Source: Planctomycetota bacterium (GTDB lineage Bacteria > Planctomycetota > PLA2 > JAEUHO01). Taken from it: a DNA stretch of 64,000 bases. Below are positions 38,592 to 55,274 of this stretch, piece after piece; position 1 is the first letter of the stretch; every line of letters starts with the position of its first letter. Below the pieces are notes generated by a model. The model did not search any database, was not told where the DNA came from, and was given only the letters and a program-made list of their open reading frames with translations. Position numbers and translations under genes: made by a program. The DNA lies in assembly GCA_965223505.1 (NCBI GenBank), contig CBDCWP010000039.1, forward strand, positions 224,001 to 288,000, written 5' to 3'.

Positions 38592-38621
38592 GGAAGGGCG
38601 GCGCTCGCGCACCGCCCTTCC
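38592..38621. terminator. Hairpin between convergent genes
   Basis: GGAAGGGCGG...CCGCCCTTCC. Confidence 0.55.
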
Positions 38622-38651
38622 GTGTTCGAGGTTCGTCAGCCTGTCTACGCC

Positions 38652-40718
38652 TCAGATGATCGTCAACACCTCGGCCATCAGGTCGCAGTGTGCGCGGTAG
38701 TTGACGTTCTTGCTGATGCGGGCGAGCGACGGGATCGACTCGAGGTCCCCGATGACGCCCAGACCCGCGCAAGCCAGCGCGCGTGTCAGTCCCTGCTCCT
38801 TGGGGTTGCGCAGGAGCATCTCCATCGGCTCGACGGCGCGCTCGTCGCCGATCTTCGCGAGCGCCAGAACGACCTGGCCCTTCACGCTCTGGCTACGCGC
38901 GTTCTGCAGCTCCTCGAGCAGGAGATTGACGGCTTCGCTGTCGCGCAGAAGCCCCAGCGCCGTCGCGCACTGCACGCGCATCTCCTCGGAGCGGCGTTCC
39001 TTCATGGCCTTGCGGATCGCGACGAGCGAGTCCTTGCGCGCGTAGCCGATCAGGCCGAGGCCGAGCGCCGCGTAGCCGCGCAGCTGGTGGTCGCCGTTCC
39101 GGTCGGCCACGATCTCGGTCAGCGCCTTGACGCTGCGCTTGTCGCGGCCGATGCCGAGCGCGGTCGCGAACGCCGCGCGCCGGCGGGTGTCGAGCTTTTT
39201 GCTCGTCAGCCCGGAGCGCAACGCGTCCAGGTACTGCTGGCGCAGCTCGCCGTACGCGATGATGTCGGCCTCTTCGCCGATCTCCCGAACGATGAGGGCG
39301 GTCGCCATCGCACCGTAGGGGCGTTCGGCGTACTTGCCGTCCTCGCACATCTCGAGCAGATACGTCTCCGCCTGCGTGCCGTCGATGACGTCGGTCTTGT
39401 TGGCCTTCACGTCTTCGTTGATGCAGTACGCCAGGCTGATCATGGCGAAGTTGCGCGCACCGATGTCCTTCACCCGCTTCTTCGAAGCCAGCAGGCTCTC
39501 GGCGACCGCAACGCGGTCCGCGCCCGTCACCAGACGGCTCATGACGCCCAGGCCGATCGCGGCCGAGCGCTGGATGACCGGGCTCTTGCCGCGACCGCTC
39601 AGCAGCGCGCCGCGTAGCACCGGGATGTCGCTCGTGTTGCCGATGCGGCCGAGGGTCAGCGCGGCGTAGGAGCGCACGAGCTCGCTCGCGTCGAGCGTGT
39701 ACAGGCGCCCGCGCATCACGCAGTCGTGCAGGACCTTGCGTTGGTTCTCGTCGACGCTGTCGCCGCTCTGCATGCCGATCGCCATCAGCAACCCGATGGG
39801 GAGATCCTCCTGGCTGTAGCGCGACTTGAGCGCCTCGAACAGCTGGGCCGTGGTGGCCTTGGCGGCGCCGCGCGCGTCGCTCGCGTACGTTCCGGAGCCC
39901 GTGGGCTGATCGCCGAGGAGACCGATCGACAACGCGGCCATGCCGCGCGTGCGAGTCGGGTACTCGTCGTCGGCGAACACCTCGAACAGGAACGCGCGCA
40001 CGCGGTCGAGCTCGGACGCGCTCAGCTGCTCTGTCGGATCGGCGCGTCGCAAGAGACCGAGGCCCAGCGCCGCGCTCTCCATCACGATGTTGTGGTGGTT
40101 CATCCGCAGATCCAGGCCCTTCTTGACGTGCTCGATGTGAACCGGGCCCCGCGCGACCTTGGCGAGCGCGATGTAGGCCGCCGACTCGACGTCGGCGTTC
40201 CCCGCGTTCTTCGGATCCATGGCCCACAGAAGCGCCGGGATGATGGTGGACTTCACCTTCGCGCGAATCTCGTGGGTGTTGTCCGGCCGGTTGCCCGCGC
40301 CGCGGTCACCCGCGTCTTGGAGGATGCTGCCCGTGTTGACGCCGAAGTAGATCGCGTCCTTCAGGAACTCGATGTCCGAGTTGTTGTGCGCGTACCAGAA
40401 GCTGAAGTCGTCGTACGTGAGCGCGCGGCTGGAGCGCGGGCGCCCGCCGACCGGTGCCCCGGTGATCGGCGGCGTACCGGCGGGGGTCGGCGTACTCGTG
40501 GGGTTCGGATTGCTGCCCCCCGTCGACGGCGTTCCGGGCGTGACGGGCGGCCCCGGCGAGACCGGAGGCGGCGGGGGCGGCGTGGGGTCGTGCGGCTCGC
40601 GCATTCGCGGCGGCACGCTGCCGCCGGGGCCGCGGAACTGGCCGCCATGGGCCCACGCGTCGGTTGCGATCAGGCTCAGCGCCAATAGGCCGAGCAACGT
40701 CACGGATAGCAGTCTCAT
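38652..40718 (-). CDS. Secreted HEAT-repeat protein (paralog A)
   Basis: Signal peptide, AHGGQFRGPGG, Pro/Thr linker, repeated R..AA.ALG. Confidence 0.85.
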   Translation of the reverse strand: MRLLSVTLLGLLALSLIATDAWAHGGQFRGPGGSVPPRMREPHDPTPPPPPPVSPGPPVTPGTPSTGGSNPNPTSTPTPAGTPPITGAPVGGRPRSSRALTYDDFSFWYAHNNSDIEFLKDAIYFGVNTGSILQDAGDRGAGNRPDNTHEIRAKVKSTIIPALLWAMDPKNAGNADVESAAYIALAKVARGPVHIEHVKKGLDLRMNHHNIVMESAALGLGLLRRADPTEQLSASELDRVRAFLFEVFADDEYPTRTRGMAALSIGLLGDQPTGSGTYASDARGAAKATTAQLFEALKSRYSQEDLPIGLLMAIGMQSGDSVDENQRKVLHDCVMRGRLYTLDASELVRSYAALTLGRIGNTSDIPVLRGALLSGRGKSPVIQRSAAIGLGVMSRLVTGADRVAVAESLLASKKRVKDIGARNFAMISLAYCINEDVKANKTDVIDGTQAETYLLEMCEDGKYAERPYGAMATALIVREIGEEADIIAYGELRQQYLDALRSGLTSKKLDTRRRAAFATALGIGRDKRSVKALTEIVADRNGDHQLRGYAALGLGLIGYARKDSLVAIRKAMKERRSEEMRVQCATALGLLRDSEAVNLLLEELQNARSQSVKGQVVLALAKIGDERAVEPMEMLLRNPKEQGLTRALACAGLGVIGDLESIPSLARISKNVNYRAHCDLMAEVLTII

Positions 40719-41031
40719 CGTCTTCTTCTCCTCGTTTCGTAGCGCAAAGGCCGGACGTCGCCCACCGCGTCCGGCGACCTGCAAGTCGCACAGCCGGTGC
40801 CGATCGCCGGGCGGCCCTGACGAATGAGGACGTGCGCGACACGGTCGTGCGGTCTTCGTTTCCCGTAGGTTCCGCCGTTCCGACACACGTGTGTCGTGGT
40901 CGATGCGCTCGCCGTCGATCGACGGCGAGCTGCCTCGCCGAGAGCGCTACCCGTACGTAGCAATCGGGCGATCAGGGAACGTTCTCGCGGCCGGTGGGGG
41001 TGCTACGTCGCGGTAGCGTGTCCGCCTGGCG

Positions 41032-42861
41032 CTACAGCAATGAGAAGAGCTCGTTGACGACGTCGGTCGAAGCGCGGTAGTTGCCGCCCGCGGTGACGAT
41101 CGCGTACGGAGACGGCTCCTCCCGGGCGCACGCGAGGCCCAGCGCAGAGATCGCGACGGCGCGCGTGAGATCCTGTTGACCGTCGTCGACGGCGAGCTCG
41201 ATCAGCTGAGACACGGCTTGATCGTCGCGCATGCGCGCGAGCGCGCGTCCGGCCTCGCCCTTCACCACGTGCGATCGGGCTTCCTCCAGCTCCTTCAGGA
41301 GGAGCGCTCTCGACGTCGCGCTCGGAAACGAGGACAACGCGCTCGCCGCCAGGACGCGCAACCACTCGTTGCGTCGCTCCTTCACGGTCGCCTCCAACGC
41401 CGACCCGATGTCGGCCGGCGGCTTCGACGCGTACGAGAGCGCGAGCGCCGCGTACCCGCGCAGCGAGTGCTCCCGCTTGGGATCACGGAGGATCGCCGCG
41501 AGCGCCGGGAGCGATGCCTCGTCGTCGGCGATCCCCAATGCGACCGCGAAGGCGTTCTGGCGGCGCGGGTCCAGCTTCTTGGTCGTCAATCCCATCCGCA
41601 GCGTCGCGATCGACGCCTTGTGTCGTTGCGCGAAGCGCGCCTGGTTGCCCGCCTCCCGGAGGAAGAGCGAAAGCGCCAGGGCGGCGTGGGGCCGGTTGAG
41701 GTAGTGCCCGTTCCGGGCGATCTCGACCAGATGATCGACCGCCTCCGCGTCGAAGGTGGCCGCCTTGGTGCGCGCAGCATGCGCTGACAGCACACCCAGG
41801 CTCATCAGCGCGAAGTTGTTCGTCGTCAGGTCCCGTGTCTTGAGGTGGCTGTCGATGAGCCCCTTCGCGATCCGGCTTCGTCCCTTGGCGGAGACGTGCC
41901 GGCTGAGCGTCCCCAGCGCCACGGCGGCGCTGCGGCGAATGGTCCGATCCCCGCGACGGCTCCCGATCCGGCGTAGCAGGGGGGTGATGTCGTCCTCCGT
42001 ACCCAGCGAACCGAGCGCCAGGGCGATGTAGCTCGCCGAGACGCTCGTGAAGGTCGAAGGGGTCGAGCGACGGCGGTGTTCCCGCATCCACGCGCGTAGT
42101 TGCTCGCGCTGCGGCTCCGTGATCGAGCTGCGGGGTTGCGACCGCAAAGCCAACAGCAGTCCGATGTAGAGGTCCGGGTAGGGATAGCCGTCGCGATCGA
42201 GTCGATCGAACAGCCGCGCCGTCGTCTTGGCCGCGTCGCCCGTGGGCTGGTCGCCCAACATGCCGATGGCGATCGCCGCGAATGCCCGTGCGCGACCCTG
42301 GAAGTCGCCGTCGTCGAAGATCCCGAACAGGAATTGGCGAACGCCGTCGAGCGTGGCCGCGTCGAGCTGGTGCGCGGGATCGTCGCGGCGCAGCAGACCC
42401 AGCGACAGGGCCGCCGCCTCGAGCACAATCACGTCGTACATCTTGTGCTTGGCTCTCTTCTCGAGGCCTTCTTTCAAGAGCTCGATGTCGGACGCATCGC
42501 GTCGAGGCATCCGAGCGAACGCGAGAAATGCCGCCGACTGCGTGTCCTGATGACCGGCCGCCTTCGCGTCCGACATCAACCGGAGGGTCGCCGCGCGCGC
42601 TCTCTCGAGCGTTTCGGCCTTCAGCGCGGGACGCGGCTCCTCGCGAACGCGCCGCTCGATGGGCTCGACGTTGTAGTGCAACCAGAACGGCCAGTCGTCG
42701 AACGTCATGCTGCGCGGGCTGTGCCCGGCGCCCGGCGGCACCATGCCGCCGGGACCGCGGAAGCGACCCCCGTGCGCGTGTGCGTCCGCCGCAAAGAGTG
42801 AGAGCGCCCATGCGACGAGCACGACGCGTCGCATCACCACCGCGGTCTTCGATCCCTGCAT
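41032..42861 (-). CDS. Secreted HEAT-repeat protein (paralog B, lacks the Pro/Thr linker)
   Basis: AHGGRFRGPGG, WPFW, HEAT repeats, NYRAS C-terminus. Confidence 0.8.
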   Translation of the reverse strand: MQGSKTAVVMRRVVLVAWALSLFAADAHAHGGRFRGPGGMVPPGAGHSPRSMTFDDWPFWLHYNVEPIERRVREEPRPALKAETLERARAATLRLMSDAKAAGHQDTQSAAFLAFARMPRRDASDIELLKEGLEKRAKHKMYDVIVLEAAALSLGLLRRDDPAHQLDAATLDGVRQFLFGIFDDGDFQGRARAFAAIAIGMLGDQPTGDAAKTTARLFDRLDRDGYPYPDLYIGLLLALRSQPRSSITEPQREQLRAWMREHRRRSTPSTFTSVSASYIALALGSLGTEDDITPLLRRIGSRRGDRTIRRSAAVALGTLSRHVSAKGRSRIAKGLIDSHLKTRDLTTNNFALMSLGVLSAHAARTKAATFDAEAVDHLVEIARNGHYLNRPHAALALSLFLREAGNQARFAQRHKASIATLRMGLTTKKLDPRRQNAFAVALGIADDEASLPALAAILRDPKREHSLRGYAALALSYASKPPADIGSALEATVKERRNEWLRVLAASALSSFPSATSRALLLKELEEARSHVVKGEAGRALARMRDDQAVSQLIELAVDDGQQDLTRAVAISALGLACAREEPSPYAIVTAGGNYRASTDVVNELFSLL

Positions 42862-42914
42862 GCCCCGCACGCCGCACCTCGCGTGCCACTCTGGCCACGT
42901 GTGTCGAACGCAGG

Positions 42915-43388
42915 CGTTCTTCGTTGCGGTCTTTCGAGGGGCGAGGAAGCGTCCTCGTGATGTAGGTGCGATGCGAGCGAGGACGCGGACGCTCACCCTT
43001 CGGAGGGGGGCCTGGGGGCACGTGCGGAGTGGGCCTTGAACCTCGATGGAGACGTTCTTCGTTGCGGTCCTTCGAGTGCCGCGAGGAAGCGTCCTCGTGA
43101 TGTAGGCGCGATGCGGAGCAAGGACGCGGGCGCTCACCCTTTAGAGGGGGTCCTGGGGGCAGCGCCCCCAGAGTGGAGACGTTCTCCGCCGGGGTCTTTC
43201 GAGCGCCGCGAGGAAGCGTCCTCGTGATGTAGGCGCGATGCGGAGCAAGGACGCGGGCGCTCACCCTTGAGAGGGGGTCCTGGGGGCAGCGCCCCGAGTG
43301 GAGACGTTCTCCGCCGGGGTCTTTCGAGCGCCGCGAGGAAGCGTCCTCGTGATGTAGGCGCGATGCGGAGCAAGGACGCGGGCGCTCA
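42915..43388. repeat. Structured tandem repeat array, left part (units ~125-140 bp)
   Basis: Units start at 42915, 43053, 43180, 43305; shared core GAGGAAGCGTCCTCGTGATGTAGG..AGGACGCGG.CGCTCA. Confidence 0.92.
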
Positions 43389-43465
43389 GGCTTTGGACGC
43401 TAGTTGGAGTACTTAGGGAAGAAAAGGGCAGGTAGTTCAGCTTCAGAACCACCTCCTCCTTCCCG

Positions 43466-43723
43466 ATGCGGATGTCGACACTCGATGACAGAATCGAGAC
43501 CCTTACTCTGCGCCAAACAGAAGCTGAAGAGCGAGCGACGCATGAGATCTGGAAGTCGCGGGAGCTGAACAAGTCCGGTGACACTGATGCCGGGAAGTCC
43601 GCTGAGGAGCGCGCCCAAGAACTCCTTGCCGATGTGAAGCGCATTGGGGCTGAGATTGACGAAGCGCTTGATGAACGCAGCAAAGTCAAGCGACTTCTCG
43701 CCTCGTTGGGCGAGTCCCCATAG
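43466..43723 (+). CDS. Small coiled-coil hypothetical protein
   Basis: E/K/R/L-rich heptad-like sequence. Confidence 0.5.
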   Translation: MRMSTLDDRIETLTLRQTEAEERATHEIWKSRELNKSGDTDAGKSAEERAQELLADVKRIGAEIDEALDERSKVKRLLASLGESP

Positions 43724-44246
43724 CGCTTCGGCTGAAGGGACCCCATGCGTGGCCCGCGTCGTTTACGGCACTGGATCATCCAACAGCTCTAGGCGCCTAG
43801 CTGCTAGCTGTGAGATTGGGACGCTTCGGACGCTTCGCATACGACGCAGTCTTGAGACGTCTGACCACCTGGCTACAGTCCGAACGTGGTCGCGTCAGTA
43901 GTTTCTCGAACTCGTTCGAGCTCTACCCAGTGTCTGTCTTGCAACTGCTCTTGGTGGAATGGCTGCTGGCGCGCCACACCCACTTCCCGGACTTTGGTTT
44001 CTCAGATTTGGTCTTGACGGCCCCAAGCGCCTGAATACCGTGGAGCTTGCAAGACAGACACGGCTAGCTGGGAGCTAGAGCGTTCGAGGGGGACTGGGGT
44101 TCTCTTCGCGGCGACTTGTGCGCCGGCGGCCACTTCGGCCATTCGTGAAGTCGATGCTGCAACCGCTGCACATCGACGCGGGATGGTCATTGGAAAGACA
44201 TGTTGGCGAGAGCGGCCTCGAGAGCGTTGCCGAAAGCGCAGCGACG

Positions 44247-44708
44247 ATGGAGACACTGAGCGTGTCGCCGATCGCATACCCCAGCCAGCAAGACCAGCTT
44301 CGGCATGGGCACTCCAACTCCTTCGGCCGTCCGCCTCTGACGTTGCTCAAGAACTTTCCCTATGCCGCGGACCTCGTTCAGCCTTTTCGCACGAAGTGGG
44401 TCCCTGTTGACTCCGAGTTTCAGTTCGCGACAGTGCACGTCCATTGCCAGACGCTCTTTCCCGCAACGTTGCCTTCGCCGGGCGTAACGATCGGCGTGTT
44501 CACTTCATTCGATACCGTCGAGTTCACTTCATTCGATACCGTCGAGTTCTATCTGATCGGAACGTCAGTCAACGTGACGGGGACGGGCTCTCAAAGTGTC
44601 CCCGTAACGACAGATCTTGGCCCAATGGTGCGCGTGGAGATCGCGAATGGTGCAACTGTGCCCGTCTTCGCCACGCTCAGTGTTTGGCTGCAACCCAAGA
44701 GTACCTAG
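44247..44708 (+). CDS. All-beta paralog 1 of 4 (start uncertain; internal 24-bp duplication)
   Basis: PLTLLKNF..W.P.DSEFQ.ATVHVHCQT..SFDTVE..LSVWLQPK. Confidence 0.7.
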   Translation: METLSVSPIAYPSQQDQLRHGHSNSFGRPPLTLLKNFPYAADLVQPFRTKWVPVDSEFQFATVHVHCQTLFPATLPSPGVTIGVFTSFDTVEFTSFDTVEFYLIGTSVNVTGTGSQSVPVTTDLGPMVRVEIANGATVPVFATLSVWLQPKST

Positions 44709-44724
44709 TCGAAGAGCAAGGGAG

Positions 44725-45087
44725 ATGAGTATGGGACCGCTAGTATTGGCAAAGAACTTTCCCGCCGTCGTGGATGAGAATCAGACATTCGTCAGTGATT
44801 GGCTCCCCATGGACAGCGAGTTCCAGAACGGAACCATCCACGTCCATTGCCAGACGATCTCGCCGAACTCGGGCGTTACGACGGGATTCGAAGTCCAGGT
44901 CGAGACGTCCTACGACACAGTCGAGTCGAACCAGATCGGGACGACGATCAATGTGATCGCAACAGGCAGCTCCAACTCTGCGATCAGCGCCAACATCGCC
45001 GCGATGGTGCGCCTGAAGATCGAGAACTCCGAGACCTTCCCGATGTTCGGCATCCTGAGCGTGTGGCTCCAGCCCAAGAGCGAATAG
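44725..45087 (+). CDS. All-beta paralog 2 of 4
   Basis: AAGGGAG RBS; MGPLVLAKNF..SDWLP..HVHCQT..SYDTVES..LSVWLQPK. Confidence 0.85.
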   Translation: MSMGPLVLAKNFPAVVDENQTFVSDWLPMDSEFQNGTIHVHCQTISPNSGVTTGFEVQVETSYDTVESNQIGTTINVIATGSSNSAISANIAAMVRLKIENSETFPMFGILSVWLQPKSE

Positions 45088-45107
45088 TTCGCCGGAGGGC
45101 TCGGTAG

Positions 45108-45467
45108 ATGGCGCCGATCGTTTTAGCCAAGAACTTCTCATTCGTTGCAGCCTCCGGGCAGACGCTGCTTGGCGACTGGATCTTCATTGGGGATCTGAGT
45201 GAGTTTCAGAACGCGAACGTTCACGTGCACAGCCAGACGCTATCGCCGTCAGGCGGAGTCTCGGGTCTTGCGGTGGATGTGCGCAGCTCATTCGATCGAG
45301 TCGAGAGCTATCAAGTTGGAGGGAGCGTCTCTGTGACTCTCCCTGGCAGTTACGACCAGACCATCTCCGCCAATCTCGCTGATTACGTGCGACTGGCCCT
45401 TACGAACAACACGGGTGGATTGCTCATCGGGATCGTCAGCGTGTGGCTGCAGATGAAGGCAGAGTAA
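45108..45467 (+). CDS. All-beta paralog 3 of 4
   Basis: GGAGG RBS; MAPIVLAKNF..GDW..HVHSQT..SFDRVES..VSVWLQMK. Confidence 0.85.
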   Translation: MAPIVLAKNFSFVAASGQTLLGDWIFIGDLSEFQNANVHVHSQTLSPSGGVSGLAVDVRSSFDRVESYQVGGSVSVTLPGSYDQTISANLADYVRLALTNNTGGLLIGIVSVWLQMKAE

Positions 45468-45492
45468 GGTTTGAGAGAGAAGGGCTTGGAAG

Positions 45493-45846
45493 ATGGGACC
45501 GCTGGTTCTGGCGAGCAACTTCCTGATGGCAGCTGGTTCAGGCCAGGTGTTTATCGGAGATTGGCTGCCGATCAACAGCCAGTATCAGCTCGCCACGATC
45601 CACGTTCACTGTCAGACGATCACGCCGTTCCCGCCCGTCACGGGCTACGAGGTGATGGTGGATAGTTCATTCGACACCGTCGAGAGCAATCAGATCGGAA
45701 CCACGATCGTCGTGTCGACGACGGGGAGCCTGAGTTCCCCGGTGACAACCAACCTTGGACCGTTTGTGCGCTTGCGAATCGAGAACCCTGAGTCGGTGGC
45801 GATGCTGGCGATCATGAGTGTCTGGTTGCAGTTGAAGAAGACGTAA
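45493..45846 (+). CDS. All-beta paralog 4 of 4
   Basis: MGPLVLASNF..GDWLP..HVHCQT..SFDTVES..MSVWLQLK. Confidence 0.85.
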   Translation: MGPLVLASNFLMAAGSGQVFIGDWLPINSQYQLATIHVHCQTITPFPPVTGYEVMVDSSFDTVESNQIGTTIVVSTTGSLSSPVTTNLGPFVRLRIENPESVAMLAIMSVWLQLKKT

Positions 45847-46142
45847 GTAGCCGTCGAGTCGATGCCATGGTTCGCGGGTAGCGAGGAGCTAAACAAGAAT
45901 GCCGGATTTCACACAGACTTACTCGCGTAACAACGACGACCTTAACGGCGTGGACGCCACGAACAACAGTGAGTACGAAACAGCCAAGCTGACTGTGACG
46001 TTGTCGGCCAACACGGACGACTGTAAGTCGATAGCGAGGACGACGACTCCGACGAGAACTGATACGCCGTCGTCAACTGATACGCCGGCGGATCTGTCGC
46101 GCCCGCTGGGGTTCACCGAGGAGGATAGACTTCCGGGAGGTG

Positions 46143-47540
46143 GAGGGTGTACCGTTCTTTCTGTAAATGGCTCCCCGGAGGAGAGGCGCTCGCTTCGCTT
46201 GAATCAGCTAGCTGATTCAAGCGAAGCGGGCGCGCCGCCATCTCCCGGGGCGAACTGAGTGGCGGATCAACGCCGTACCTTTGCAGGTAACGACACCACG
46301 CAAAGGAGGAACGACGTGACCCACCACGAACAGCGTACGCCTTGGGGCGACGCACTGGAAGCGCTCAGCGAGAACGGGTTCGACGGCATGGCTGAGGCGA
46401 TGCGGGTGCTGGTGAACGAGGCCATGAAGGTCGAACGCAGTGCCTTCCTCGGCGCCGAGCCCCACGAACGCACGGATCAGCGCCGCGGCTACGCCAACGG
46501 CTTCAAGCGCAAGCGCGTCAGAACCCGCTTGGGCGAGATCGACGTCCAGGTGCCCCAGGTTCGCGACGTCGAGGGCGGCGACACGTTCTACCCCTCCAGC
46601 CTCGAACGCGGCCAGCGAAGCGAGAGAGCGCTCACGCTGGCCCTGGCGGAGATGTACGTCCAGGGCGTCTCGACGCGGCGTGTCGAGGCGATCACGAAGG
46701 TGCTTTGCAACGGCCTGGAGATCAGCTCCACGAGCGTGTCTCGAGCAGCTGCGCTGCTCGACGAGGAGCTCGAGCGCTGGCGCACACGTCCGCTCGGCGC
46801 GTTCAAGTACCTCGTACTCGACGCTCGCTACGAGAAGGTGCGCCACGGCGGATCGGTGCGCGACTGCGCTGTGCTGATCGCCATCGGCGTCGATTCTCAC
46901 GGCAAGCGCAGCGTGCTGGGAACGAGCGTGAGCCTCTCGGAGGCCGAGGTCCATTGGCGCGAGTTCCTCGCTTCTCTCCAGGATCGCGGCCTTCACGGCG
47001 TCGAGCTCATCACCAGCGACGGCCACAAGGGCATTGCGGCCGCGCTGGCGGCGCGGTTCGCCGGCGTGGCCTGGCAGCGCTGCCAGTTCCACCTGCAGCA
47101 GAACGCGCAGAGCTACGTTCCGCGCCAGAAGCTTCGACGCGACGTTGCCGCTGACCTTCGCGCCGCGTTCAATGCGACGTCGCGTCGCGAGGCCGAAGAG
47201 AAGCTCAAGGCCTTCGTGAAGAAGTGGGACAAGCCCGCGCCCGACCTGGCGCGCTGGGCCGAAGAGAACATTCCGCAGGGCTTCACCGTGTTCGATCTCG
47301 GCCTGAACGAAGCGCAGCGCAAGCGCCTTCGCACCACCAACAGCCTCGAGAACCTGAATCAGCAGATCCGCCGCCGCACTCGCGTCGCCGGATTGTTTCC
47401 GAACGAAGCGTCCTTGCTGCGGCTCGCAAGCGCGGTGCTCATCGAGATCAGCGAGGAATGGGAAACCGGACGGAGGTACTTGCCGAGGGACGACGCTTGA
47501 TCAACCGCTCAGCGATTTACAGAAAGAACGTTGCTCTGCC
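46143..47540 (+). mobile_element. IS256-family insertion sequence, complete (1398 bp)
   Basis: Same sequence as 6571-7968; 9-bp target duplication CGGGAGGTG (46134-46142, 47541-47549). Confidence 0.95.
46316..47500 (+). CDS. IS256-family transposase
   Basis: Protein identical to 6744-7928. Confidence 0.95.
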   Translation: MTHHEQRTPWGDALEALSENGFDGMAEAMRVLVNEAMKVERSAFLGAEPHERTDQRRGYANGFKRKRVRTRLGEIDVQVPQVRDVEGGDTFYPSSLERGQRSERALTLALAEMYVQGVSTRRVEAITKVLCNGLEISSTSVSRAAALLDEELERWRTRPLGAFKYLVLDARYEKVRHGGSVRDCAVLIAIGVDSHGKRSVLGTSVSLSEAEVHWREFLASLQDRGLHGVELITSDGHKGIAAALAARFAGVAWQRCQFHLQQNAQSYVPRQKLRRDVAADLRAAFNATSRREAEEKLKAFVKKWDKPAPDLARWAEENIPQGFTVFDLGLNEAQRKRLRTTNSLENLNQQIRRRTRVAGLFPNEASLLRLASAVLIEISEEWETGRRYLPRDDA

Positions 47541-48251
47541 CGGGAGGTGGGTGGCCGGCGAAGATCCCCGGCGGTGTCCCTTGGGGTTCGCCGGACGCGG
47601 AAACCATCGAAGAGCCGCCTCCAGTCGAGACAGAGGACGACGAACCTGCTGGAACAGAGGGTGGTGGAGACACTTCTGTCGTTTGGAGATGCACCGGCGA
47701 AGTCAAGATCACGCTTACCGTGAAGGCAGAGCAGAAGACCAGTGATCCTCTATTCATGGAGGGGGGGCAGGGCTACCGACTGAGAGGTGCAGTCATTGGG
47801 AGGAGAGAACCGATCATCACCGGTCCCTTCGTGCAGCCTCCTCCTCCGGGCCTCGGAGAGCCAGCCCCCTTGGAGTTGACCGCGACGATTGATCTAGGTA
47901 CGTTGCCGTGTACGGGTGGTCGCCTGCGAGGGACAGTGTACGCCAACATGATAAACAGCAGGCACCGAGTTCGACTGCCCGCGAGTAACGGGCGCCCAGA
48001 GAGAACTAGGGTCCTGCCTCGAACGCAGTTGCAGATCAGTTTCACATTGAACGTCAAGGAATGCGGAGATGTGGAGTGCCAAAGGTTGGAGACCGAAGTA
48101 CCTGCGTGGTTGCACCAGACCTATGACCGTCGATTCCGGATGCGGCGCTCCAACATGCTCAGACACACGGGAAGCAACTTCGAACGTGCCCCCGCGACCG
48201 GTTGGCCTCAACCGTTCCGTAGGAAGGTGGAGCGTTAGGCGAGGGGGGGGT

Positions 48252-48719
48252 GTGCACGAACGTAGACTCTTGGCTTCATCGCTGTGCTTGCTGGCACTCG
48301 TCCTGAGTGCTTGCGCAAGTGCCTCCAGTCAGCGACTGCCCGCATACGAGCCCTACGTGTTTCCTGTGCTCGAGTGCCGTCTTGTCCGCGCGGAGGAGTA
48401 CGTCATGGTCGTGCGATCGAACCGGACGTGGTGGATTGTGGACCAAACGCTCTCGGATCATGACAAGAACAAGGTACAAGTGGGCACTTGGCGGGCGCTT
48501 GATCAATCTGTGTTGCAGTTTCGGCGATACGGTAGCCGGCGGCCAACCGGCTATCTAAGGTGCGATCTATCGGACCGCTCCGGAACAACGTGGGCCTTCT
48601 CTCGCGATCAGGGATTCCAGCGTTCGACTCGCTTGGTCGTGTCCGACCCGAGTGAAGTCCATATCCTATGGAATGCGCTCTCTCCGGTGAAAGACCGACT
48701 AGCTCTGGCCGCCCGATGA
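48252..48719 (+). CDS. Putative lipoprotein
   Basis: MHERRLLASSLCLLALVLSA-C lipobox-like signal. Confidence 0.55.
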   Translation: MHERRLLASSLCLLALVLSACASASSQRLPAYEPYVFPVLECRLVRAEEYVMVVRSNRTWWIVDQTLSDHDKNKVQVGTWRALDQSVLQFRRYGSRRPTGYLRCDLSDRSGTTWAFSRDQGFQRSTRLVVSDPSEVHILWNALSPVKDRLALAAR

Positions 48720-48864
48720 CCCAGTTTTCGCGCTGCGGCTTGAAGCATCCCCTTGCCGAGAACGACAGCCAGACGTCCGTATCCACAGGAGCTTGAAGGA
48801 GACACGGACACGCGGCGACGGCTGCAGTCGCTCGTGGCGGGCAGCGATAGCACTCTCCGAGTTC

Positions 48865-49377
48865 CTACTTGACGTTTGCTTGCTCCTTCGTCAGCGCAGT
48901 CGCAGCAACCGCGATAGCGTCAAACATGTTGGAGTGATAGCGCGTCTTCCATTTGCGGTTGAGGCCGAGAAAGGCCCGAAGCCGCGGGTATCCCTGACAG
49001 ATAGCGGAAGCGACTCGAGCCTTGCTGGCGTTTCCGTCTCCGGTGACTCGTTTTTTCGCTGTGCTCGGGGAGACCAGCACGACGCGCACTCCCAGCGCCT
49101 CCGCTAGTGACTGGATCTCGTCGGCAACCAGGCGCAGCAAGCCAGAGTGAGAGCTTGCTGAGAAGAAGATGCGCTCGATGACCACAGCCTCGGGTTGATA
49201 GGCCTCGATGAGGCGGCCAACGACCTTGCGTGCTGCCGCCAGAGTCTGTTGCGGTCGGCACTCCCAGATCTCAAAGACCTGATGATGAATGAGCTCACGG
49301 CCTTCAAGCACAGCCGTACCCAGATACCTCGTTCCCGGATCTATCCCCAGCACCCTTTCTGGTCTTGGACCCTTCAT
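48865..49377 (-). CDS. RuvC-like (Holliday-junction resolvase family) nuclease; ORF open to 49407
   Basis: VLGIDPGT, VVIE, SP..AKKRVTGDGNASKARV, MFDAIAVA; no ruvA/ruvB nearby. Confidence 0.85.
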   Translation of the reverse strand: MKGPRPERVLGIDPGTRYLGTAVLEGRELIHHQVFEIWECRPQQTLAAARKVVGRLIEAYQPEAVVIERIFFSASSHSGLLRLVADEIQSLAEALGVRVVLVSPSTAKKRVTGDGNASKARVASAICQGYPRLRAFLGLNRKWKTRYHSNMFDAIAVAATALTKEQANVK

Positions 49378-49697
49378 GAAAGCAGGGTGCGGTACTTCTC
49401 CAGGCAAGCCAGCCAGGAAGAGTTCCCAAGGAAGATCGAATCCGCTCCTAGGGCCCAGGTGGATCGCCCAGAAGCGCTCTGAGCTTCCACCAATAGCGCC
49501 GAGCCACTCGGTACTCGCTCAGTTCCCAGGCCTTCCAGGTGCGGTGAGCGACACCCACCCGGACTGCAGCCTCACGCTGCAATAGACCGAGCCGTCGTCG
49601 GGACCGGCGAATCCAGTTGCTCTCAGCTCGTCCGTCGAGCCGAGGAAATGGCGGCACCGGGACTGACAAAGTGGCATTCCAACAAGGCTCCAAACCC

Positions 49698-50130
49698 CTC
49701 ACCCTTCGGAGGGGGGCCTGGGGGCACGTGCGGAGTGGGCCTTGAACCTCGATGGAGACGTTCTTCGTTGCGGTCCTTCGAGTGCCGCGAGGAAGCGTCC
49801 TCGTGATGTAGGCGCGATGCGGAGCAAGGACGCGGGCGCTCACCCTTTAGAGGGGGTCCTGGGGGCAGCGCCCCCAGAGTGGAGACGTTCTCCGCCGGGG
49901 TCTTTCGAGCGCCGCGAGGAAGCGTCCTCGTGATGTAGGCGCGATGCGGAGCAAGGACGCGGGCGCTCACCCTTTAGAGGGGGTCCTGGGGGCAGCGCCC
50001 CGAGTGGAGACGTTCTCCGCCGGGGTCTTTCGAGCGCCGCGAGGAAGCGTCCTCGTGATGTAGGCGCGATGCGGAGCAAGGACGCGGGCGCTCACCCTTT
50101 AGAGGGGGTCCTGGGGGCAGCGCCCCCAGA
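49698..50130. repeat. Structured tandem repeat array, right part
   Basis: 49698-50094 matches 42992-43388 with one visible mismatch, followed by the end of the last unit. Confidence 0.92.
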
Positions 50131-50193: not shown

Positions 50194-52311
50194 CTAGATG
50201 ATGGAGAGCACCTCGTTGATCAGGTCGGTCGAAGCCCGGTAGTTGACGTCCTTGCTGATGCGAGCCAGCGAGGGAATCGACTCGAGGTCACCGATGACGC
50301 CCAGGCCGGCCGTGGCCAGCGCGCGGGTGAGGTCCTGCTCCTTCTTCTTGCCTTCGTTGAGGGCAATCTCGACGAGCGGACCGACGGCTTCTTCGTTACC
50401 GATCTTGGCGAGAGCCAGCACGACCTGGCCCTTGACGCTCTGGCTGGAGGCGTTGCGCAGCTCCTCGAGCAGCAGCTCGACGGCCTTGTCGTCCTTCAGC
50501 AGACCGAGCGCCGTGGCGCACTGCTGACGCATCTCCTCGGAGCGCTTCTCCTTCAGCGCTTCGCGGATCGCGACCAGCACCGGCTTCGGGCCGTGGCCGA
50601 CCAGACCGAGCGCCAACGCCGAGTAGCCGCGCAGCTCCTGGTCTTCCTTGCGGTCGGCGACGATCTCACGCAGGACACGCTGGCTGTGCTCGTCCTTGAT
50701 GATGCCCAGCGCGCAAGCGAAGGCAGCGCGGCCGCGCTTGTCCATCTTCTTGCTCTGAACACCGTTGCGCAGGATCTCGAGGGCCTTCTGGCGAACCTCG
50801 CCGTAGGCGTTGATGTTCGGCTCCGCCGTGATCTCGCGGCCCATCAGCGACAGGGCGAGCGCGGCGAACGGACGGTGCATGTACTTCCCGTCCTCGGCTT
50901 CCTTCAGCAGGAACTCCTCGACGCGGGAGCCGTCGATGACGTCCGTCTTGTCCTGCTTGACGTCGTTGATGACGACGTAGGCAAGGCTGATGTAGCTGAA
51001 GTTGCGAGCACTGGAGTCCTTGACCTTGTTCTTCTGGATGGCTTCCAGGAGACCGTTGGCCAGGTTGACACGCTCCGCGGCCGGAATCAGGCGGCTGAGC
51101 ACGCCGAGGCCGATGGCGGCCGAGCGCTGGATGTTGGGGTCGTTGTTGCGGCGAGCGGTGAGCGCACGCTGCAGGACCGGAATGTCAGCCGTGTTGCCGA
51201 TGCGACCGATGGTCAGAGCGGCGTACGAACGCACGAGGTTCGACGCGTCGCCCTTGTACATCTTGCCCTTGAGGACGACCTCGCGCAGCACCGCGCGCTG
51301 GTCTTCCGTGAGGCTGTCCTTCGGCTGAAGGCCGATGGCCATCATGAGACCCACGTACAGGTCCTGGTTCGAGTAGTCGGCCTTGAGGAGCTCGAACAGG
51401 CGAGCCGTCGTGGCGGCGGCGGCGCCCTTGGCGGCGCTGCCCTCGTCCGTCGCGCTACCCGGGTAGTCCGCGGAACCCGTCGGCTGGTCGCCGAGCAGGC
51501 CGAGGCTCAGCGCGGCGAAGCCGCGTGTGCGAGCCTGGTAGTCCTTGTCGTTCTCGAACACGTCGAAGAGGAACGTGCGGACCTTGTCGAGGTCGGCGGC
51601 GGCGAACTGGTACTGCTCTTCCTGGCGGCGAAGCAGACCCAGCGCGAGCGCGGCGGACTCCTGCGTGATGAGGTCCTTCTTCTCCTTCGGATCCAGACCC
51701 TTCATGAGCATCTCGATGTGCTTCGGGTCCTTGTTGGTCATCTTGGCCAACGCGATGTAGGCCGCGGACTCGGTGTCCTGGTGACCGGCCAACTTCGGGT
51801 CGTTGATGAGCTTCTCCATCGCCGGGATGATCGTGCTCTCGACCGCGGCGCGAATGTTGTGCATCGCATCCGAACGGTTCGAGCGCTCGCGACCACCCAG
51901 GTCGAAGATGAGGCTCTCGGACGAGACCACGCTGTAGAGGATGTCCTTCAGCGTCTCGATGGTCTCCTTGTTGTTGTGGTACCAGAACGACCAGTTCTCG
52001 AACGTGATCGCCGACGGGCCCTTGCGGGGCTGGTTGCCCGAGGTGGGCTGGGTCGGCGTGGTCGTCGGTCCGACGGACGTCGGCGTCGGGTTGCTGTTGG
52101 GCGAGCCCGGCGTCGTCGGCGTGCTGGGGGTCGTGGGCGGGCCCGAGGGGGGCGGCGGCGGAGGCGGCGTCGGGTCGGTCGGCTCGCGCATGTTGGGCGG
52201 AACCGCGCCACCGGGGCCGCGGAACTGGCCGCCGTGTGCCCAGAGGTCACCGGCGAAGAGGAGCACGGCGACGGTGACGGCCAGCGCTCCGAAGATCGTT
52301 CGCTTCATCAT
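50194..52311 (-). CDS. Secreted HEAT-repeat protein (paralog C)
   Basis: GGAG RBS; signal peptide; AHGGQFRGPGG; Pro/Thr linker; HEAT repeats. Confidence 0.88.
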   Translation of the reverse strand: MMKRTIFGALAVTVAVLLFAGDLWAHGGQFRGPGGAVPPNMREPTDPTPPPPPPPSGPPTTPSTPTTPGSPNSNPTPTSVGPTTTPTQPTSGNQPRKGPSAITFENWSFWYHNNKETIETLKDILYSVVSSESLIFDLGGRERSNRSDAMHNIRAAVESTIIPAMEKLINDPKLAGHQDTESAAYIALAKMTNKDPKHIEMLMKGLDPKEKKDLITQESAALALGLLRRQEEQYQFAAADLDKVRTFLFDVFENDKDYQARTRGFAALSLGLLGDQPTGSADYPGSATDEGSAAKGAAAATTARLFELLKADYSNQDLYVGLMMAIGLQPKDSLTEDQRAVLREVVLKGKMYKGDASNLVRSYAALTIGRIGNTADIPVLQRALTARRNNDPNIQRSAAIGLGVLSRLIPAAERVNLANGLLEAIQKNKVKDSSARNFSYISLAYVVINDVKQDKTDVIDGSRVEEFLLKEAEDGKYMHRPFAALALSLMGREITAEPNINAYGEVRQKALEILRNGVQSKKMDKRGRAAFACALGIIKDEHSQRVLREIVADRKEDQELRGYSALALGLVGHGPKPVLVAIREALKEKRSEEMRQQCATALGLLKDDKAVELLLEELRNASSQSVKGQVVLALAKIGNEEAVGPLVEIALNEGKKKEQDLTRALATAGLGVIGDLESIPSLARISKDVNYRASTDLINEVLSII

Positions 52312-55105: not shown

Positions 55106-55274
55106 CCTGATCGACGACCGGTTGGGCGACCACGAGGGTCGCCCCTACGAATCGTGCATGTGTCCGCGCCTGATCGACGACCGGTTGGGCGACCACGAGG
55201 GTCGTCCCTACGAATCGTGCATTTGTCCGCGCCTGGTATACGACCGGTTGGGCGACCACGAGGGTCGCCCCTAC
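55106..55274. repeat. Three tandem GTAG-type REP units (63-bp period)
   Basis: Minus strand GTAG-GGGCGACCCTCGTGGTCGCCC palindromes between convergent genes. Confidence 0.85.

Follow-up and report, generated by a model that had tools for sequence, protein, structure and literature searches.

A low-GC segment in a planctomycete genome, probably an immobilised member of an element lineage moved by a large serine recombinase

The window analysed here is a stretch of 64,000 nucleotides from the draft genome of a Planctomycetota bacterium (assembly GCA_965223505.1, contig CBDCWP010000039.1, positions 224,001 to 288,000), and the subject of this report is a 6,309-bp segment of foreign DNA within it, low in guanine and cytosine (GC), that occupies window positions 43389-49697. 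This segment was inserted as a mobile element: it has true inverted arms at its termini and no working mobility gene of its own. It probably belongs, as a copy that has become immobile, to a lineage of integrative elements moved by a large serine recombinase (LSR). Its ends resemble the terminal inverted repeats (TIRs) of a transposon, yet they agree with the two half-sites, P and P', of an attachment site (attP) for an LSR, arranged around a GA core, and not the ends of an insertion sequence (IS), because relatives of the element share the arms, the positions of an LSR gene and of a small helix-turn-helix (HTH) gene, and a split host repeat. The features of the segment are collected in Table 1; genomes and contigs are designated by G and C numbers, the window's own genome being G000.

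Inverted ends, recombinase remnant and relatives

Both ends of the segment directly abut the tetranucleotide CTCA, at 43385-43388 and 49698-49701, and the ends themselves, GGCTTTGGACGCTAGTTGGAGTAC and the reverse complement of GGGTTTGGAGCCTTGTTGGAATGC, are identical at 16 of 20 and at 18 of 24 positions; an earlier, sequence-only reading of this DNA had reported the CTCA tetranucleotides and the imperfect inverted ends, and both are confirmed. The arms sit exactly at the points where the homology between the two flanks breaks. When pairs of 24-mers were drawn at random from the window, 36 of 2,000,000 pairs had at least 18 matches, and 29 of these 36 were identical 24-mers from repeated DNA. 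Since the register of the arms is set independently, by the break in flank homology, their match is not a product of chance. The composition of the DNA changes at the same borders, with a GC fraction of 0.55-0.61 in the insert (excluding an IS256-family copy of 0.62-0.68) and of 0.67-0.70 outside. Both junctions are also present, over 30 nt each, in short-read contigs from public sequencing runs. These runs, four in all, which come from one study and were available as contigs only, probably derive from the source sample, and thus provide another type of data but not an independent sample.

The remnant of an LSR gene, consisting of its last 30 codons, reads outward across the left arm. In tblastn searches it matched the C-terminus of an LSR on contig C27 of genome G415 (67% identity, E 4e-7) and those of two intact LSRs of genome G417, on contigs C49 (52%, E 2e-4) and C8 (45%, E 2e-3). 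The window holds no further LSR sequence beyond these 30 codons, and the window copy is a decayed derivative because a C-terminal remnant is all that it retains of the gene. Homologues of the LSR were found in four of 29 genomes of the same family, all four from other genera than that of the window. The two intact G417 proteins (639 aa on C49 and 518 aa on C8, with 61% mutual identity) combine Resolvase, Recombinase and zinc-ribbon domains. The outward-reading open reading frame (ORF) at the left end of the G415:C27 element encodes the C-terminal 302 aa of an LSR, in which the Recombinase domain, a zinc ribbon rich in Cys and a coiled coil are recognised. The left end of the window element, taken as the arm and the 78 nt that follow it, is 81% identical to the left end of this G415:C27 element, whose pair of arms bounds a low-GC island of 13.8 kb and whose outer left flank likewise ends in CTCA.

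Ten places matched the LSR query, and when they are aligned from the 3' end of the gene, seven of them show the gene end followed first by the arm and then by the flank. The boundary between arm and flank reads TGAG in five of these seven and GGAG in one: the TGAG sites next to the recombinase-side arm are those of the window, of contigs C27, C31 and C23 of G415 and of C49 of G417, and GGAG is found on C2 of G001. The three remaining places represent a structured repeat in uninterrupted form, and they were matched only because the flank encodes the tail of the query.

At the other end of the element the HTH gene starts inside the right arm and reads inward. Its assignment rests on weak matches to HTH proteins; placement in the VC1465 family associated with Xer activation was considered and rejected, the NCBIfam score being 22 bits against a cut-off of 70, which we take as a generic HTH likeness. 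An HTH homologue lying inward of a solo arm on contig C8 of the window's own genome prompted a search of the 29 family genomes, which revealed homologues at ten places in five of them. An arm of the type GGGT..CCTTGTTGGA is located about 60 nt upstream of eight of the ten, and the other two have a variant arm matching the one on the recombinase side of G417:C8. Where arms could be paired in the relatives, they agree at 19 of 24 positions (G415:C27) or at 17 of 24 (G417, contigs C49 and C61). In both G415:C31 and G415:C27 the LSR and HTH genes lie at opposite ends of the element and on one strand, with order and strands as in the window. The GA dinucleotide is present at five of seven HTH-side junctions with the main arm type and at six of seven LSR-side junctions. 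The layout of the family in these relatives is therefore seen as an outward-reading LSR gene at one end, an inward-reading HTH gene at the other, and inverted arms of some 24-25 bp.

The solo end of the window's own genome (G000:C8:80560-80788) differs from the right arm by four mismatches; it is situated behind the terminator of a gene and a (CCCGGT)n run, and a scan at up to eight mismatches brought up no opposite end within 20 kb. The HTH-side end in genome G014 (contig C7, L145:1797-1873) lies about 70 nt from a gene for tRNA-Arg(ACG).

In the available extract of a study of LSR attachment sites (PMC3783163), attP is described as a pseudo-palindrome whose 25-bp half-sites surround a central dinucleotide. 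The arms of the window element, matching at 18 of 24 positions and placed at its exact boundaries, are what half-sites of about this length in a pseudo-palindromic attP would look like. The element itself is no longer self-mobile, since its LSR is reduced to the last 30 codons and no cognate LSR was found in its genome, where PF07508 gave no hits and no protein with a Recombinase domain was detected. It is thus most likely immobile.

The split target repeat and the duplicated array

Into what kind of site do these elements insert? In G415 they land in a repeat about 115 nt long and rich in hairpins, which is dispersed over the genome (L162:1470-1620 and 40 further places) and is also found in G021 and G001. 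An uninterrupted copy reads ...GCAGCACCG TGAG GGGTGCAG..., and at a filled site the HTH-side flank consists of the left half followed by TGAA, while the LSR-side flank consists of TGAG followed by the right half. From the difference between the attL and attR sites of G415, TGAG as against TGAA, the exchange can be located within TGA. Among the 41 matches of the repeat in G415, 16 span the site, eight begin at repeat positions 39-42, twelve end at 40-52 and five are partial in other ways. The copies on C27 and C31 are split, and on C31 the two halves are about 11.7 kb apart, with the LSR and HTH genes at the two ends of the intervening DNA. A short core is thus shared by both junctions: CTCA in the window, where the exact dinucleotide is not resolvable, and TGAG, TGAA or GGAG in the relatives. 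The earlier claim of insertion at a fixed site in a structured repeat is in this way borne out by the relatives, in which uninterrupted copies exist beside those split at TGAG/TGAA. Ten of the left halves in G415 end at positions 40-44, most of them as identical 28-mers; either a sub-family of the repeat or another kind of insertion may lie behind this.

These observations suggest a simple scheme. In the excised circle the two arms would abut around the short core (TGAR on the LSR strand, CTCA on the plus strand of the window), forming a pseudo-palindromic attP. The LSR would recombine this attP with a matching core in the host repeat, with strand exchange at the central dinucleotide, and the integrated element would then appear bounded by TIRs and by a short direct repeat. 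In the window copy an IS256-family element has later landed in one of the cargo genes.

The flanks of the window element hold a feature that the sequence-only reading overlooked: they form a 397-bp direct repeat, 42992-43388 and 49698-50094, identical at 396 of 397 positions. This block has a GC fraction of 0.69, which is host-like and unlike that of the element. It belongs to an array that lies between two of three tandem paralogous HEAT-repeat genes and starts right after the terminator of one of them (50194-52311). The three paralogues (window 38600-43000 and 50194-52311) encode a secreted HEAT-repeat protein of about 700 aa, and tandem pairs of such genes are conserved in several relatives. 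The repeat unit of the array is not a genome-wide repeat in this genome, since its family is confined to this array and to a weaker array of three 124-bp units on contig C33 (G000:C33:24388-24759; L027:4388-4759). The C33 array shares the core ..GCGCTCACCCTTCAGTGGGGGTCCTGGGGG..CCCCCAG with the window units and carries no insertion. The array DNA found no match in the 40 relatives searched, all from other genera, and in Rfam the arrays and the element gave matches below threshold only.

The duplication is real in the short-read data. The public contigs contain three junctions, from U0 to U1, from a U3-type end into the element, and from the element into a U1-type start, each over 30 nt and free of mismatches, and these three are together incompatible with a four-unit array that received a simple insertion. 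One contig of run X2 leaves the array at 43214; its 30-mer at that point is absent from the genome, and it may come from another strain or organism. Two histories could account for the duplication. The array may already have held two copies of the three-unit block, the element having entered the core between them. Alternatively, an array of four units may have carried copies of the element in its first and last cores, with a subsequent homologous exchange through the element; such a two-site exchange gives exactly the observed order, with the borders of the duplication at the ends of the element.

A wider proposal can be made, to which we give somewhat less than an even chance: that the segment is a decayed member of an undescribed serine-recombinase lineage which homes to a fixed, GA-containing core in structured repeats resembling the repetitive extragenic palindromic (REP) type, dispersed in one genus and arranged in tandem here. 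These repeats would act as multi-copy landing pads, and alternative integrations within the array, followed by homologous exchange, would have produced the 397-bp repeat.

Weighing the alternatives

Several observations count against the assignment to an LSR lineage or to its proposed target. The window's LSR is a remnant of 30 codons only. No GA stands beside the arm at two of the seven HTH-side junctions, those of the solo end in the window's own genome (GTCA) and of G014 (AACC). G415:C30 (L153:10780-19273) bears two identical HTH-type ends that face each other 8.5 kb apart. LSR chemistry does not yield a 397-bp duplication, and the host sequence around the window CTCA has neither clear dyad symmetry nor, outside the core, any likeness to the target in G415. 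Contig C40 of the window's own genome encodes two distant serine recombinases that share 27-28% identity with the family LSR, and these might still act on the element in trans. Neither an empty site nor an excised circle was seen in the contigs of the four public runs, which show no joint from 43388 to 49698, although holes in contigs prove nothing. The elements of the relatives, all of them from other genera, were read from crude ORF calls; the window's genome is a draft of 44 contigs that is 92% complete, and G415 is 75% complete. The two HTH-type ends on G415:C30 show that rearranged forms exist. The interior of that locus, with IS66-family insertions and a gene for a DddA-like deaminase domain beside an Imm1 immunity gene, looks like a rearranged composite.

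The best of the competing explanations is a mobile insertion cassette (MIC), that is, a non-autonomous transposon of the DDE type with 24-bp TIRs related to IS ends, moved by a transposase in trans and flanked by a 4-bp target duplication, CTCA. In the available extract of PMC4337579, MICs are described as passenger genes between IS-related inverted repeats that are activated by the cognate transposase. The window element resembles them in having passenger genes between inverted repeats and a short direct repeat, in lacking a transposase of its own, and in the presence of a solo end elsewhere in the genome, as is usual for MICs. The ends, however, are unrelated to those of any IS found in this genome, and no transposase with related ends was found there either. 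A scan of the genome for approximate copies of the arms gave the C8 solo end and nothing else convincing, a scan for inverted pairs that start with the arm tip gave the element itself only, and the non-IS parts of the element and both of its 60-bp ends are single-copy. Among 185,579 species genomes the end pattern had one match, in a Bacteroidetes metagenome-assembled genome, with none of the element's genes beside it. Moreover, the LSR remnant overlaps the left arm at the place where relatives have full LSR genes, and the only DDE transposases inside the relatives' elements belong to IS66-family insertions with accessory genes of their own. We therefore regard a cassette as improbable. The sequence-only reading had favoured a cargo transposon mobilised in trans and proposed a search for an autonomous IS with the same TIRs; that search found none in the window's own genome, and, with an LSR remnant at the left end and no transposase element with related ends in this genome, the proposal is probably not correct.

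It had also been suggested that the stand-alone RuvC-like protein encoded near the right end might be used for mobility. This protein matches Pfam RuvC (PF02075) with E 3.3e-13 and 50.2 bits against a cut-off of 22.2, with a weak match to RuvX as well, and matches phrog_159, the family of phage RuvC-like resolvases, with E 1e-21. A profile search of the PDB returned canonical RuvC structures only. It is not the housekeeping RuvC, since its NCBIfam score stays under the equivalog cut-offs (46.6 against 163 for RuvC). It has neither the DEDD domain PF01548 nor the C-terminal Transposase_20 domain of IS110 enzymes, so that its earlier description as a resolvase-type RuvC without the IS110 domains holds, on the evidence of Pfam and of the structure-profile matches. 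The statement that it is the only recognisable nucleic-acid enzyme of the element apart from the IS256 transposase agrees likewise with Pfam, which names only these two.

Could the HTH and RuvC-like proteins together form a split transposase, with one supplying DNA binding and the other an RNase-H-fold nuclease? The order of arm, HTH gene and RuvC gene mimics that of OrfA and OrfB in some IS families, the HTH gene always adjoins an arm, and the RuvC-like protein keeps the aligned residues D23, E78 and D163. Against this, the nearest structures by sequence are all canonical RuvC, and the residue three positions before D163 is Asn. Canonical RuvC has His or Asp at this position. No RuvC gene lies beside the HTH gene on the window's own C8, in G001:C24, or in G014, G415 and G417. 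The RuvC subfamily was also not found in G001, G004, G009 and G021, all of which have the jelly-roll family of the cargo (see below); only housekeeping-like hits appeared there (E 1e-4 to 1e-8), and G001 possesses both HTH and LSR homologues. A constant part of the element family is thus not to be seen in the RuvC, which makes mobility driven by it unlikely, and the earlier suggestion is not upheld. A split transposase is, in our view, very improbable; the RuvC is probably accessory cargo from another mobile element and not the engine of this one.

The nearest relatives of this RuvC are tandem pairs in other LSR-bearing elements. The subfamily is rare and divergent within the phage RuvC-like family: among 5.8 billion clusters a single protein exceeds 50% identity (53%) and one more reaches 36%, the remaining matches having 25-37% identity and those with names being annotated as RuvC. 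Fourteen specific relatives were found in JGI metagenomes, 11 of these 14 loci carrying a tandem pair of RuvC genes where the window has a single one. On long metagenome contigs the pair lies beside an LSR, a PD-(D/E)XK nuclease, RadC and DUF932. These LSRs were considered as a tie to the present lineage and ruled out, being only 23% identical to the family LSR. The conserved tandem pairs of divergent RuvC genes (L054, L056, L059, L061 and others) may form, within integrative elements, a resolvase module that works as a heterodimer.

Just as improbable as a split transposase is an origin in which the arms are not recombinase sites at all: either a circle carrying one 397-bp block integrated by homologous recombination of the Campbell type, or a hairpin-ended linear replicon was resolved by RuvC. 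Foreign DNA flanked by a long direct repeat is what a single crossover leaves behind, and abutted arms would make a 48-bp palindrome. RuvC-type enzymes resolve such palindromic junctions in poxviruses. The 397-bp block, however, has the composition of the host; conservation of arms, core and gene order extends to sites that have no such long repeats; and in the contigs the element and its flanks are covered to a similar depth, which is weak evidence. Least probable of all is an assembly artefact that misplaced foreign DNA or a duplicated flank: a 44-contig draft with exact 397-bp repeats invites such errors, but the three junctions described above are present without mismatch in the short-read contigs.

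How, then, does an LSR-moved element of this lineage compare with systems already described? Elements and prophages with serine integrases of the phiC31, Bxb1 and A118 type likewise have a recombinase gene beside the attachment site, inverted arms and a tiny direct repeat. The present case differs from them in that only 30 codons of the recombinase gene are left, in that insertion is into a repeat unit (tandem in the window, dispersed in G415) and not into a unique gene, and in that the cargo is not a phage genome. Tn4451/Tn4453 (TnpX) and Tn5397 (TndX) are closer in being small to mid-sized elements moved by LSRs. Target sites of Tn5397 always have a central GA dinucleotide, according to the accessible portion of PMC4430133, and GA is conserved in the core here; these transposons differ in coming from Firmicutes and in carrying resistance or conjugation genes. 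Multi-targeting LSRs, as set out in the available extract of Durrant et al. 2022 (PMC10083194), have relaxed specificity and/or have evolved to target multi-site host sequences, which fits the many split copies of the repeat in G415. The clade marked there by DUF4368 differs in this respect from the two intact family LSRs, for which Pfam reported no such domain, and that extract does not mention homing to a structured repeat.

Insertion at a constant point within a structured repeat is known from another quarter. REP-targeting insertion sequences include IS1397 and ISKpn1 of the IS3 family and members of the IS110/IS1111/IS621 group; these use DDE or DEDD enzymes, whereas here the enzyme would be a serine recombinase. 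If the reading given here is true, the lineage is a serine-recombinase counterpart of the REP-targeting insertion sequences, and the family shows LSR elements landing on a structured genomic repeat in an uncultured bacterial family. The earlier judgement that this was no described system is overstated, as LSR-moved integrative elements and transposons are well known as a kind; it is the lineage and its homing to a repeat that may be new. A literature search returned no description of REP-like repeats as a homing target of LSR elements, although the absence of such work from the literature is not thereby shown.

The general lesson is that a TIR-bounded element with no transposase need not be a transposon, since the half-sites of an LSR attP look alike; what decides for the recombinase here is the 30-codon gene remnant together with the relatives. 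LSRs with naturally multi-copy and well-defined targets are of interest to genome engineers, and the intact enzymes of G417 come with an attP and an attB that can be inferred. The window's own copy is a dead island with a cargo that is unexplained.

Cargo genes and secondary insertions

Table 1. Features of the insert and its flanks (window coordinates)
Feature	Position	Strand	Remarks
Diverged repeat unit U0	42865..42991		left of the duplicated block; ~90% identical to the 3' part of the units
Left copy of 397-bp repeat	42992..43388		U1 141 bp, U2 127 bp, U3 125 bp, plus CTCA; host-side (B-type) flank, recombinase-side junction
CTCA	43385..43388	+	reads TGAG on the opposite strand; proposed core region of the crossover, with the GA dinucleotide
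LSR 3' remnant	43387..43476	-	30 codons; reads outward across the left arm
Left inverted arm	43389..43412	+	proposed attP half-site, recombinase side; 18/24 to right arm
Coiled-coil-like ORF	43466..43723	+	85 aa; doubtful gene, no family match
Short-repeat-family piece	43889..44132		five other partial copies in genome; holds 158-bp MITE-like insert 43923-44080
Small jelly-roll paralogue A	44334..44708	+	holds 24-bp tandem duplication 44498-44549
Small jelly-roll paralogue B	44725..45087	+	AlphaFold 2 pLDDT 85.6, eight predicted strands
Small jelly-roll paralogue C	45108..45467	+	
Small jelly-roll paralogue D	45493..45846	+	
Thr/Pro-rich gene	45899..48238	+	310 aa; split by the IS256-family insertion
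IS256-family insertion sequence	~46143..47541	+	transposase 46259-47500; PF00872 E 5e-101
Putative lipoprotein gene	48255..48719	+	…LALVLSAC…; no family match
Stand-alone RuvC-like resolvase	48865..49407	-	180 aa; type found in phages and mobile elements
Small XRE-like HTH gene	49448..49690	-	starts inside the right arm and reads inward; conserved end-adjacent gene of the family
Right inverted arm	49674..49697	-	proposed attP half-site, HTH side
Right copy of 397-bp repeat	49698..50094		CTCA at its start
Partial last array unit	50095..50130		abuts terminator of HEAT-repeat gene 50194-52311 (-)

The most distinctive part of the cargo is a run of four tandem paralogues of about 118 aa each, for which AlphaFold predicts an eight-stranded jelly roll. 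Matches to this predicted fold are generic, the best having a TM score of 0.57 in the PDB and of 0.75, to an unnamed protein, in a library of viral structures. Neighbours in the ESM Atlas are clusters of hypothetical phage proteins (0.95), with recognition below the mark set for it, and such phage-like neighbours of a predicted structure are a lead, not a function. The family is rare, with 57 representatives at E <= 0.001 among 1.84 billion, and within the phylum it occurs in five of 401 genomes, all of them in the window's own family. The perfect 24-bp duplication in paralogue A is missing from the contigs of three runs, which may reflect a polymorphism or a difference in assembly.

The 310-aa protein rich in Thr and Pro is 25% identical over 171 aa to a protein of G004, and its frame reads through once the IS-free joint is applied. 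This joint comes from a contig of run X2 that connects 46132 to 47540 and so omits 1407 bp, which shows that an IS-free allele exists and that the IS256-family copy is polymorphic; the IS-free length of 4902 bp given by the sequence-only reading is thereby confirmed. The inserted copy has the features of its family, namely a Mutator-type transposase, terminal arms identical at 19 of 20 positions and multiple copies, and it is probably active, given that many copies in the genome are 100% identical.

A second, smaller insertion resembles a miniature inverted-repeat transposable element (MITE). It has inverted ends (..GTGTCTGTCTTGCAA), and a joint from 43922 to 44081 that skips it is seen in all four public runs. 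The short repeat family in which it lies is represented on contig C30 by two pieces that flank an IS256 copy.

PADLOC assigned no family to any of the ten proteins, and searches of viral contigs with the RuvC-like protein and one jelly-roll paralogue as queries gave no close relatives. At the DNA level, a search of the same 40 relatives matched the element only to the jelly-roll genes of G001 and to a 75-nt stretch of the left end in G021. Several diverged copies of the HTH gene, of genes for secreted proteins, of jelly-roll paralogues and of a gene for a 516-aa Pro-rich protein are distributed over contigs C24, C60, C69, C41 and C104 of G001, where they are broken at contig ends. No clear arm was seen at the opposite end of this module on C69; the overlap of C24 and C69 suggests an element of about 5 kb with a gene order that is rearranged relative to the window.

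Finally, a 63-bp tandem repeat of 2.7 copies, with 94% matches, is located outside the element at window positions 55106-55274.

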